From positions 32,001 through 96,000 of the IMG/VR virus record IMGVR_UViG_3300012007_000009: 64,000 nt of DNA; one strand, 5' to 3'. This DNA is from a virus. Its lineage: Duplodnaviria > Caudoviricetes. Below are positions 31,374-35,214 of this stretch, one piece after another; the first letter of the stretch is position 1; each line of letters starts with the position of its first letter. The position numbers and the translations under genes are program-made. The notes under the pieces are model-generated. The model had not been told where the DNA came from and made no database searches. It saw only the letters and a list, made by a program, of their open reading frames with translations.

Positions 31374-32107
31374 GGCAGATACCTTCTTTGTAAAATTGCA
31401 ATTTGTCCGAAAGTTTATATACGTGGCAAAAAAAAAAAATCAAATGCCCGGCATAAACTACAGGGCGAGGAACTAGATTATGGACCTGAATATCCCCAAA
31501 TCATCCACGGTAAGCCACGAGCTACCCATTTTCAACGAACTTAGCCAGGATTCCGGCCTGCCTGTAAGCGAAGTGAAGGCCAGGTTCAGGAACAAGATGC
31601 TCGAATTGCACCAGAAGTCCCTTGATGACCCGTCCAGCCTGCCGCTCGGCACGGATTCCCAGGAAATGGCGCATACCGCGGTCAACGAGCTGCGTACGGA
31701 ACTGGAACACCCCGAGGAAAAGCTGGATGACCAGGATGAATACGACCAGATTATGGGATTCGACCCGACCCAGCCGGCCCCGGGTTCCGATATTTTCGGC
31801 GCCGATGACTTCGGGGGTGGTGATTTCGGGGGTGGCGACAGTTTTGGTGGCGGTGACTTCGGCGGTGGTGGATTCGGTGGAGGCATCGACAACCTCGACA
31901 TGGGATTCTCGGACGAGGGCATGGACGCTGTCAACTCGGTCGCCGACGATGGATTCGACGATTTCGGCTTCGAGGACGATGCAGGGTTGTCAACAGCTAA
32001 CCTAAAATCTACCTAAATTTACTAAGTTTTACCGAAATTTGCAAGTATTTCATTGCATTTTAGGTTGAAGCTCGGTATAAAATTTTGTATATTGTTATAA
32101 ACTTGAT

Positions 32108-32223
32108 GTATAGAGGTTCAGTGAATTAGTGGCTTTCTTCATTGAACGACACTGAGAGACCATTTATGATGGCTCGTTTGATGCTGAAAGCCACAAAAAG
32201 TATCGAACGAGCCATTTCTGTAT
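32108..32223 (+). ncRNA. Predicted structured RNA: three-way junction with a 9-bp kissing-loop pseudoknot, upstream of tnpB
   Basis: Stem 32116-25/32138-47 (10 bp); stem 32169-85/32199-215 (17 bp); loops GTGGCTTTC and GAAAGCCAC are exact complements; all non-WC pairs are G-U on the plus strand. Confidence 0.7.
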
Positions 32224-32225
32224 CT

Positions 32226-33965
32226 ATGAGCAAGCACTGTTGGGCATTGAAGGATAAGTACGAGTCGCAGTTCTCCGCTGCGTTCTATCCTATTCTATTG
32301 TCCGACACCAAGCGAGCTGAAATCATTCATCGAGCAGAGGAAATCCGTTCCGTAAGAAATGACATATCGGAGATATTCTTCTCGGATATGCTCGGCTTTC
32401 AGGACATGACAAAGTTTGAAGCGTTAAACTTCTTCAATCCTACATTCACGACCAGACTGTCCAGTCATTACTTGAAGAAGGCTATAGAGGATGTATGGAG
32501 AGCCTATCAGCTCCGGTTCGATGCTATTCGCAAGAATATTGAGTTCGTCAAGGTTGAAAAACTCGTTCCATTGTTCTACAAGATAAATAGTCACGGACAT
32601 AAGAAAGGTGACTTAAAATCTATAGAGTGCCATACCAAGAAGACTGAACTCACAAAGGTACTGACTTGGCTTGCACGATACGGAAAGGACGAAACTGTCT
32701 ATTGGCTCGAATCCGTGATTCCTACCACACAGGAATCAAAGCAGAAGTTCTACCGCGCCATCTTGGAGAAGATTAGGAAGTTCGGCTTTGAACGCCTCAT
32801 GAGATTGGCTCTATCTAGGAGAATCACTGTATTTGCCGAATACGAGACGCGTGGAAAGATTACATTTGAATCGCTTACCTTCAGTGGCCGTAGCCGTATC
32901 AAGCGTCCTATCGTGGATGCTCGTAGGAACGAGACTGGTAAGTTCGATTACTTCATCGAGATTTCATGGGACTGGTATGACCAAGGTTATCATGGCGACA
33001 GCAAGAACACGCTGTGCATGCCGTTCAAGTATAATAGAAAGTATCACCGTTCTTTGAATAGGTACTGCAACGGAACAGACACTTCCTATACGATAGTAGT
33101 ACGAGGAAAGGACATCCATGTAGTTCTCGCGAGGGACGGTTACCGCTACAAGAATACCGATGAGATAACCGAAGATAATACCGTCGGTATAGATGTTAAT
33201 TCCAAGCACAACATGTTCGCCTTGAGCAGCGGAGAGTTCATACCTAACGACGATGCCTTGATTGCCGACCTAGAAACCGAGCTGCTCAAGATAGACCAGA
33301 AGCAGAAGAACTACAATGCCCGGTTTGCCAAGGACGAGGAACATGATGCATTCAAGATTTCCAAGAAGGACAAGGCTCGCGTCGAAGCGATAACCTTGAA
33401 ATTGAACGAGTCCAACAAAAGAACGATTGTACTGCTCTGCCAAGCCTTTGCTGCCAAGGGAATCAAGCACATCGCAATGGAGAACCTCGACGGTTTCAAA
33501 GGAAGCAAACTTCATTCCGAGGACAGTAAAGGATTTAATCTAGGTAGATTGCATCTGCGGACTGGACTTTCCTCCCTGAAGGATGAGTTCATCCATATTG
33601 CACCCAAGTACGGCTTGCTAGTATCGCTTGTGCAAGCCGAATACACATCGAAGATGTGTGGTCACTGCGGTTGTATTGATGACCGCAATAGGCAAACACA
33701 AGAAGAATTTTGCTGTGTGGAATGCAGTCATTCCGAGAATGCCGATATACACAGCTCGAAGAACATTAAATTTCGCCTTACCTCGACCGTGTTAAGAGAG
33801 AACCTGCTCGTAAGAGCGGGGGATAGCGAATACAGGTACTTCATTCCGAAGGGACTCCTTCCTAGGTGGAAGGTGAAGAAGTTCTTGGAAAAATGTCGTT
33901 GCGATGGCTTGTTCAAGCAAGCTATAGAAAATCAGCAATTATCTACCACTGATAGATTTTGTTAG
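32226..33965 (+). CDS. tnpB: Long TnpB/Cas12f-like RNA-guided RuvC nuclease (~579 aa)
   Basis: VGIDVN (RuvC-I), IAMENL (RuvC-II), YTSKMCGHCG...CVEC zinc ribbon, NADIHSSKNI (RuvC-III). Start placed after the RNA structure; the frame is open from 32142. Confidence 0.88.
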   Translation: MSKHCWALKDKYESQFSAAFYPILLSDTKRAEIIHRAEEIRSVRNDISEIFFSDMLGFQDMTKFEALNFFNPTFTTRLSSHYLKKAIEDVWRAYQLRFDAIRKNIEFVKVEKLVPLFYKINSHGHKKGDLKSIECHTKKTELTKVLTWLARYGKDETVYWLESVIPTTQESKQKFYRAILEKIRKFGFERLMRLALSRRITVFAEYETRGKITFESLTFSGRSRIKRPIVDARRNETGKFDYFIEISWDWYDQGYHGDSKNTLCMPFKYNRKYHRSLNRYCNGTDTSYTIVVRGKDIHVVLARDGYRYKNTDEITEDNTVGIDVNSKHNMFALSSGEFIPNDDALIADLETELLKIDQKQKNYNARFAKDEEHDAFKISKKDKARVEAITLKLNESNKRTIVLLCQAFAAKGIKHIAMENLDGFKGSKLHSEDSKGFNLGRLHLRTGLSSLKDEFIHIAPKYGLLVSLVQAEYTSKMCGHCGCIDDRNRQTQEEFCCVECSHSENADIHSSKNIKFRLTSTVLRENLLVRAGDSEYRYFIPKGLLPRWKVKKFLEKCRCDGLFKQAIENQQLSTTDRFC

Positions 33966-34080
33966 ATTTTTGCCAACGGTCAGTTAACGCGATGTCCGAC
34001 ATCGAACCTTCCGGGGATTCCGGGGAAACAGAAGAGCCCTCCTCGGATGAGGGCGGCTCGGACGACCTGAACCTCAATAT

Positions 34081-35214
34081 CTAGGCCTTCTCGCCGAAAT
34101 ACATGCACTTCCGGGCGAACTTCTTGTCCTGGAATGTAAGGAAAAGGCGGCCGTCGTCGGAATGCAGCATCTCAAGCACGGCGGAACCGGCATTCCTCAC
34201 CATCATGGTACTGACGTCCATCGGCAAGTCGATGGACTTTTTCGTATCCATCATCCTGACACCGGTCATGGTAATTGTTCCTGAATACCTGTCCTCGAAG
34301 CCGTACTTCATCTCGACGGTCTTCTCGTCCAGGGGAACCAGTTTCACCGGGGCAATCGGGTCCTTGTAGTTGAGGCCATACACCATGTCGATTGTCGCCA
34401 TCATGCCGATGGTGTCGAACTTCATGTACGGGGACATGCCTTCGCTGCTGCCTGTACGGAGCTTGCCTTCACCATAGGCGTAGTTGATTCCGTAAAGTTT
34501 CCCTTGTGTACGAATGCGCTTCCTCGACCAGTCGAGGTCGAACGAGCACAGGGGGTCCGTGCTGACTGTAGGCATAATCTTGAACACGTTCACCGGGACG
34601 GATATCGCGAAGTCCGGTACGTCCTTCATCGATTCCACACCTAATACCTTGATAGTAAACGGGAGGGTCGCGATGCTGACCCGGTCGTTCCCGGTCCTGA
34701 ACGACAGAGTCCCCTCGTTGCACGCAAACTCGACTGTATCGAACTCGTAGCAAGTGTCGATGATTGAAGCCATCACCATTTGTTCGACCTGAATGGTGAG
34801 GTCAGGGGAAAATCCCTCATCCATTTCGAACGGTTCCAACAAAGGAAGGCTGGCTTCGGATTCAAAGCATTCCAGGCCCTCGTTGTAGGAGGAACCGATG
34901 TACAGCCTGCCGTCAGCAACCCACAGGGCAACCAGGCCGTCCTTCACTCCCTTGTCGCAGGTGACGAAGAAGTCACTCAGTCTCACATACGCATCGCTGT
35001 CCAGGCATTCCGATTTCAGTGTAGTGTCGACCAGTGCAGTAACTCCCTTGTCGGTAGTGAGCTTCATGTAAACAAGGTCGTCCTCGTCGTGATTGACAAA
35101 CGTCTCGATGTGAACCTTGCTCTCGTCGGACTCACACGAGAATCCGATAAATGAAATTGCTTCACGGAAACCAGTCACCGTGTTGAACATAGTAAGCTTT
35201 GGCGTATTTGGCAT
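34081..35214 (-). CDS. Hypothetical protein, possibly a divergent beta-clamp (DnaN)-fold protein
   Basis: 377 aa with a three-fold repeating alpha/beta pattern, e.g. 'TLSFRTGNDRVSI...FAISVPVNVF'. Confidence 0.4.
   Translation of the reverse strand: MPNTPKLTMFNTVTGFREAISFIGFSCESDESKVHIETFVNHDEDDLVYMKLTTDKGVTALVDTTLKSECLDSDAYVRLSDFFVTCDKGVKDGLVALWVADGRLYIGSSYNEGLECFESEASLPLLEPFEMDEGFSPDLTIQVEQMVMASIIDTCYEFDTVEFACNEGTLSFRTGNDRVSIATLPFTIKVLGVESMKDVPDFAISVPVNVFKIMPTVSTDPLCSFDLDWSRKRIRTQGKLYGINYAYGEGKLRTGSSEGMSPYMKFDTIGMMATIDMVYGLNYKDPIAPVKLVPLDEKTVEMKYGFEDRYSGTITMTGVRMMDTKKSIDLPMDVSTMMVRNAGSAVLEMLHSDDGRLFLTFQDKKFARKCMYFGEKA

Follow-up and report, generated by a model that had tools for sequence, protein, structure and literature searches.

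In the 64,000-nt stretch of viral DNA analysed here (the window; bases 32001–96000 of the 160.8-kb IMG/VR virus record IMGVR_UViG_3300012007_000009, with a CheckV completeness estimate of 44%), a transposase-less IS607-type element carries tnpB as its sole gene. The region directly in front of tnpB holds a conserved and selected plus-strand RNA structure, termed the leader in the following, in which the apical loops of two hairpins pair with each other in a loop-loop helix. It represents a hitherto undescribed family of phage leader RNAs, of which it is one copy. Judged from its sequence and from the genes it precedes, it is best explained as a promoter-proximal, terminator-like, loop-loop-locked RNA that would limit or gate the expression of tnpB, and we give this explanation a probability of roughly 0.55.

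An initial annotation, made from the letters of the window and a list of its open reading frames (ORFs), had described hairpins A and B with perfectly complementary loops upstream of a long TnpB. Both hairpins and their loops are present at the positions listed in Table 1 and are conserved in 35 distinct homologous leaders (alignment A3), and the 579-aa TnpB-like ORF beginning with the ATG at 32226 was likewise found. A single 9-nt inverted repeat is not unusual in the window (25 were counted at a spacing of 30–80 nt, versus about 12 in shuffled sequences), and therefore homologues were collected and the comparative data were taken as decisive. The pairs between the two loops are Watson-Crick in 314 of 315 cells (99.7%, n = 35 leaders) and never G-U. 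Changes on both sides were seen at five of the nine pairs, and the central pairs occur as up to four pair types, so that the complementarity noted in a single sequence is borne out as covariation among homologues. Seven types of the 4-nt core were seen in the clade of the 579-aa TnpB, and two more in other clades. Compensatory changes were also found in 7 of the 10 pairs of hairpin A (98.3% paired) and in 4 of the 17 pairs of hairpin B (96.5% paired). None of 500 shuffles reached the observed pairing values, and registers slid by 1–3 columns left 34–44% of the cells paired.

All non-Watson-Crick pairs of both hairpins and of the loops in the window are G-U on the plus strand, from which selection at the RNA level had been proposed. 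The homologues strongly support this view: their stems contain 197 G-U but 14 A-C combinations, and this excess fixes the plus strand and points to RNA rather than duplex DNA. The folding energy of the plus strand is −44.8 kcal/mol (z = −4.0 against shuffled sequences), while z = −1.8 was obtained for the minus strand. The loop of hairpin A opens with an invariant UUAG turn of the YUNR type, and the loop of hairpin B consists of its pairing segment (32186–32194) and an A-rich 3′ tail. Mutual information across the 2-kb element revealed no third pairing partner for the loop cores; only the partner loop shares information with them.

Table 1. Positions of the tnpB element, its leader and its guide-RNA scaffold in the window.
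Feature	Position	Strand	Remarks
tnpA-less IS607-type element	31987..33979	+	carries leader, tnpB and 3′ guide-RNA scaffold
Extended −10-like promoter box (TGnTATAAA)	32093..32101	+	predicted start near 32106–32110; consensus match only
Proposed closing stem, 5′ strand	32108..32115	+	pairs with 32216–32223; 8 bp, 3 G-U; unproven
Hairpin A	32116..32147	+	10-bp stem (32116–25/32138–47); 12-nt loop
Loop A pairing segment	32129..32137	+	partner 32186–32194; variable 4-nt core 32131–32134
Linker, single-stranded	32148..32168	+	5′ half variable; conserved 3′ half purine-rich, then U-rich
Hairpin B	32169..32215	+	17-bp stem (32169–85/32199–215); 13-nt loop; terminator-like
U-rich tract	32214..32225	+	between hairpin B and tnpB start codon; no Shine-Dalgarno sequence
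tnpB	32226..33965	+	579 aa; RuvC motifs and zinc finger present
Guide-RNA (omegaRNA-type) scaffold	33772..33980	+	overlaps 3′ end of tnpB; ends at right end of the element

The initial annotation had also closed the two hairpins with an outer stem into a three-way junction. The 8 bp of this stem are present in the sequence, but in the 35 leaders they show no compensatory change, with 88.8% of the cells paired, and the stem is impossible in those family members in which the RNA begins with hairpin A, so it is not a family-wide feature. Since covariation is lacking, the junction remains unproven. A longer alternative helix of 24 nt, in which the 3′ arm of hairpin A would pair with the 5′ arm of hairpin B, was rejected, since outside its loop-loop part it has no compensatory change and many unpaired cells. 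The two halves of the linker were distinguished by means of alignments A3 and A5 and parsimony counts. A match of 9 out of 10 nt between the linker and the right end of the element (33947–56) proved to be due to chance: it connects the variable half of the linker to the variable loop of the last 3′ hairpin, and the two do not co-vary.

Promoter sequences had been suspected just upstream of the leader, and a conserved extended −10-like box was indeed found there. It is nearly invariant in the 35 leaders and is kept in two other TnpB clades while the sequence upstream of it diverges. The 5′ non-coding part of the element measures 239 nt. No Shine-Dalgarno (SD) sequence precedes tnpB, and other genes of the same phage have sites of the AAGAGG/GGAGG type. 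The distance between hairpin B and the ATG is fixed at 10–12 nt across three TnpB clades. Together, the anatomy of the leader, the SD-less tnpB and the fixed spacing argue for a gate on expression. A split ribosome-binding site involving an AGAGG before hairpin A was discarded, as it is not kept in other TnpB clades.

We propose the following course of events. The promoter carried by the element (−10 box at 32093–32101) would start a plus-strand RNA of about 110–120 nt, which would fold into the short hairpin A and the long hairpin B, and the 12-nt loop A, opened by UUAG, and the 13-nt loop B would form a Watson-Crick helix of 9 bp. This helix may pre-organise, nucleate, lock or stabilise the large-looped hairpin B. 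The U-rich tract after hairpin B reaches to 1 nt before the SD-less start codon of tnpB, and the folded leader could act as a terminator or occluder, so that most transcripts from the element promoter, as well as read-through transcripts from the phage gene interrupted by the element, would stop or stay untranslated. The consequence would be a low or conditional production of TnpB and of its 3′ guide RNA. The start of transcription is predicted, and we likewise infer that transcription terminates at hairpin B and in which direction the leader shifts expression. A translational switch, which the initial annotation had offered as one option, is possible as a part of such gating.

With a covariance model of the leader, a second, divergent copy was found in the same virus record outside of the window (L082, 1501–1622; G000:C1:160362–160483). 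Its loops are perfectly complementary, the TnpB that follows it is a different one, of ordinary appearance and truncated by the end of the contig, and its core differs from that of the window copy (GGUA versus GGCU). Further members came from pattern scans of viral contigs that were filtered for loop complementarity. The motif precedes a 378-aa IS605-type TnpB, a 438-aa TnpB and an HNH/NUMOD4 endonuclease, and was also found before three KilA-N or KilA-N/ANT genes, one Rha gene and three ORFs without Pfam matches; in every context an ORF on the same strand lies 10–70 nt beyond it. The stems share no sequence between contexts, and MAFFT misaligns them, but each member still folds into two hairpins with loops of 12 nt and 13 nt. 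Invariant in the family are the UUAGU that opens loop A, the ACAA and the A-rich tail in loop B, the purine-rich and then U-rich linker, and the U-rich tract that follows hairpin B. Upstream of hairpin A there is always a promoter-like box, an extended −10 in the tnpB-linked copies and a TAnnTTTG-type box in the others. In the other members, hairpin B is long and GC-based, and a run of U comes after it. In a complete temperate phage of 55 kb the motif belongs to the early operon, where Rha follows it directly and an integrase and a CI-type repressor are its neighbours. A single motif per record was counted in five phage records, of which three are 97–100% complete. Since unrelated phage genes have the same leader in front of them, its most likely role is to gate expression rather than to serve as a second guide RNA.

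The flanks examined of tnpA-bearing IS607 relatives of the 579-aa TnpB, in which tnpB follows tnpA in an operon, contain no leader. The only match for the 579-aa TnpB in a bacterial genome (L080, a contig of a Clostridia metagenome-assembled genome from water buffalo cecum; 71% identity) has kept the leader, with compensated changes in its stems; apart from this genome, searches of 151 genomes from its order and 401 from its phylum gave no further motif, and blastn gave no match to it in GenBank phages. A first, looser pattern scan resulted in chance matches only, and later scans gave 6 and 42 further matches, none with complementary loops; these 48 serve as negative controls. The initial annotation had not recognised the structure as a described family, and in agreement with this, Rfam gave no match at E ≤ 10 over positions 31500–34600 and nothing relevant at E ≤ 1 in three other members, while no TnpB 5′ leader with kissing loops turned up in searches of the literature. 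In two members (L285 and L287) a word of 8–10 nt with the 5′ arm of hairpin A (TAACCGCC) recurs just past the U tract; this word might offer the 3′ arm of hairpin A another pairing option, or be the trace of an insertion. In a TnpB relative of 36% identity (L078, 1340–1500) the place of the leader is taken by another kind of 5′ region, in which GGTGGCACG and its complement form a long-range stem of 9 bp.

Several observations weigh against a gate of the proposed kind. A GC-rich base of hairpin B and a U-rich tail are present in all members, but the 13-nt loop is atypical for an intrinsic terminator, the U tract of the 579-aa clade is interrupted (5 U in 8 in the window), and a terminator consensus scan does not call hairpin B. 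A stabilising or enhancing role would fit the same anatomy. Furthermore, a purely cis-acting fold does not explain why the core is fixed elsewhere and diversified in the 579-aa clade. Outside of this clade the loops are identical letter for letter, with a GGUA-type core, in eight or more TnpB and non-TnpB contexts despite their unrelated stems. Within it, the core positions change 8–16 times on the coding-sequence tree, and the two central positions 15–16 times; for third codon positions on the same tree, the median is 7 changes and the 95th percentile 14.

Neither a fixed nor a diversified core is predicted by a purely intramolecular lock. This, along with the UUAG turn and a pairing that is strictly Watson-Crick, leaves room for a model of action in trans. 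A putative terminated leader would act as a small antisense RNA whose hairpin A loop kisses loop B of nascent leaders with the same core, resulting in copy-number sensing (multicopy inhibition) or element-specific immunity, in the manner of the P4 CI, P1/P7 c4 and plasmid copy-control RNAs. We regard this as unlikely, although it is the alternative that fares best. YUNR turns are a hallmark of fast-pairing antisense loops, and the invariant UUAG directly precedes the pairing segment of loop A, which pairs without any G-U. Hypervariability of the core is confined to the multi-copy TnpB clade, and phage contexts with a single copy have a fixed core. Two copies with different cores are present on one 407-kb contig, and the phage RNAs c4 and CI set a precedent for leader RNAs that act on the transcript to which they belong. 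However, the two partners are 57 nt apart in one RNA, so pairing in cis should be kinetically favoured, the two copies of another contig have identical cores, and recombination between leader and coding sequence may inflate the change counts. On the same tentative footing, the 4-nt core might be an address by which co-resident TnpB elements sense copy number or exclude relatives through an RNA-only incompatibility code. Such a code would have diversified in the mobile TnpB lineage and stayed fixed in single-copy phage genes.

A positive role of the leader, in which the compact 5′ fold protects tnpB mRNA from 5′-end-dependent decay or aids the start of ribosomes without an SD sequence, appears distinctly improbable to us. 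The position of the fold at the predicted 5′ end of the mRNA, its fixed spacing to the ATG and the missing ribosome-binding sequence before tnpB would agree with it. An SD-like purine run is located 6–9 nt before an ATG or GTG at the foot of hairpin B in the window (32150–32171) and at the same place in L225, L258, L082 and L277, i.e., in tnpB-linked copies and in L277; it results in a 3-codon mini-ORF in two TnpB clades. This arrangement, which would also favour a positive role, is not seen in members with the TAnnTTTG-type box, which lack SD-like sequences. The frame of the upstream ATG is not conserved either (15 in frame, 18 at +1, 2 at +2), for which reason an upstream ORF or an N-terminal extension from this ATG was rejected as well. 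Where family members have a strong terminator-like hairpin and an extended run of U immediately ahead of the gene, the arrangement resembles a stop and not an enhancer.

Slightly less probable still is a sensor leader, either riboswitch-like or a target of a phage antiterminator or RNA-binding protein, in which the kissing complex would be the recognised surface and would open transcription at a set stage of infection. The arrangement of promoter, leader, terminator and gene is that of an attenuator, conservation extends to the linker and to the A-rich 3′ tail of loop B, and the letter-identical loops in contexts with unrelated stems suggest recognition beyond complementarity. Beyond the loops, however, no conserved junction or pocket was seen, no candidate partner gene is linked to the motif, and a sequence-specific binder should not put up with the free variation of the core in the 579-aa clade. 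A purine-riboswitch-like kissing three-way junction was rejected in particular, as its P1 stem shows no compensatory change and is absent in other members, the junctions measure 0, 21 and 0 nt with a variable linker, and Rfam gave no match.

The right end of the element carries a guide-RNA scaffold of its own. Its consensus fold, derived from 20 homologues, has 60 pairs, 18 of them with compensatory changes, and the 3′ strand of a long-range helix is formed by the last 7 nt of the element, directly after which every locus diverges. This is the usual position of TnpB guide RNAs (omegaRNA, reRNA/RAGATH-18) (PMC11061315; 10.1101/2023.11.20.567912). Such RNAs come from the 3′ end of tnpB, overlap the end of the ORF and have a scaffold that extends to the right end, all of which applies to the separate 3′ scaffold and not to the leader (32108–32225), and they occur only with TnpB-family nucleases, which is not true for the leader motif. 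The tracr-like or split-guide RNA bound by an enlarged TnpB that the initial annotation had considered is thus very hard to maintain, in spite of the proximity of the leader to tnpB in three TnpB clades and of about 200 N-terminal aa of the 579-aa protein outside of TnpB profiles, since the right end already has a complete, covarying scaffold, covariation between the leader and other parts of the element is absent, the motif also precedes HNH, KilA-N, ANT and Rha genes as well as TnpBs of ordinary size (378 and 438 aa), and tnpA-bearing relatives of the same TnpB do without it.

Among known systems, the leader would, by analogy, work most like the leader-derived immunity RNAs of phages and like promoter-proximal terminated leaders. 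In satellite phage P4, pairing of the CI RNA with the leader leads to premature termination, and in P1/P7 the complementary letters of c4 differ between phages and set heteroimmunity. As in these systems (Rfam C4), a promoter-proximal leader segment pairs through exposed loops with the same transcript, upstream of regulators such as antirepressors. The complementarity within one transcript and the co-varying letters (9 bp, 9 core types) are found in the leader too, and its home context is an early operon before Rha, KilA-N or ANT genes. The leader is nevertheless not a member of C4, as there is no covariance-model match, and its target is the apical loop of a terminator-like hairpin, whereas the targets of C4 are a ribosome-binding site or separate seqA/seqC sites. 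In the lambda PR′-6S RNA-tR′ region and at the T-even I-TevI/segB hairpins, a stable hairpin within about 100 nt of the promoter keeps a selfish or late gene silent unless there is read-through or a later start. The leader likewise has a predicted promoter and then a stable hairpin directly before the gene, but the lambda and T-even elements have neither a loop-loop helix nor a co-varying address.

In IS200 the 5′ untranslated region of tnpA, and in IS10 the RNA-IN/RNA-OUT pair, hold down the element's own protein by RNA structure or antisense RNA, and multicopy inhibition by IS10 works via loop-initiated pairing. The leader differs in having no antisense promoter; both partners are on one strand within one leader, and the regulated protein would be a nuclease and not a transposase. 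The pRNA of phi29 also has two loops whose complementary letters co-vary between relatives, and these pair between molecules to form a ring on the packaging motor of small podoviruses. Unlike pRNA, the leader motif is located before assorted accessory genes, rides on transposons and has no Rfam match. With omegaRNA the leader has in common that it is a structured RNA inside a TnpB element, but it lies on the 5′ side, has no guide-adjacent end and is not TnpB-specific. The group I intron of IStrons occupies about 580 nt of the left end; an IStron-like origin was rejected, since there is no group I match and the 5′ non-coding part is too short, with 239 nt versus about 580 nt.

The carrier element is a low-GC island (about 41–47% GC versus about 55% in the surroundings). 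Homology to more than 60 viral and metagenomic loci begins near 31987 and stops at 33979/80, and both flanks are unrelated. GG is present at both junctions (31985–86 and 33978–79), a target duplication is absent, and removal of 31987–33979 in silico restores an ORF of 203 aa. This interrupted phage gene (31480–31986 plus 33980–34084) has the same orientation as the element, and its product is very acidic with Gly/Phe/Asp repeats. The sequencing runs listed with a matching stretch are DNA runs of bovine and other gut metagenomes, with no RNA run among them, and the phage is a rumen phage.

The window copy of the element has no transposase gene. Its TnpB matches the profiles PF07282 (3.8e-11) and NF040570 (the NCBIfam guided_TnpB subfamily; 1.9e-21, 76.8 bits, which is under its cut-off of 100), has 1207 relatives at E ≤ 0.001, and its N-terminal part of about 200 aa is outside the coverage of TnpB profiles. 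Some of the relatives at 80–90% identity have a TnpA with a MerR-type helix-turn-helix (HTH) and a resolvase domain directly upstream; in autonomous relatives at 85–90% TnpB identity this Resolvase plus MerR ORF comprises 212–236 aa. This TnpA assigns the carrier to the IS607 family and makes the window copy a transposase-less derivative. Features of IS607 are indeed present, namely the serine-recombinase TnpA with MerR-type HTH in the autonomous relatives, the GG junctions without target duplication and a site allowing scarless excision. Autonomous relatives often have an additional ORF of 112–121 aa without Pfam match between tnpA and tnpB (L004 2480–2845, L070 1151–1501, L059 1163–1501). 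Inside both ends of the window copy (31995–32045 and 33950–33975) there are inverted AT-rich repeats of about 10 nt (AAATCTAC type), with arms of 18 nt and a match of 83%, which are probably the recombinase binding sites of IS607-type ends. One contig (L013, ~185–539 and 670–1024) carries two right-end scaffolds of the element family about 485 nt apart, which suggests a solo right end or a truncated copy beside a full one.

Our data add an uncatalogued structured RNA with unusually clean loop-loop covariation, and caution that a 5′ RNA beside an enlarged TnpB need not be a guide component. The RNA occurs in phages with two different promoter styles (extended −10 and TAnnTTTG-type), and at least three TnpB lineages have taken it up as a portable cassette of promoter plus leader. 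Its naturally orthogonal kissing pairs of 9 bp are a ready address library for RNA engineering. For the biology of TnpB, it appears that a dedicated RNA gate controls how strongly phage-borne elements without a transposase express their nuclease, which bears on how selfish nucleases are tolerated inside phage genes.

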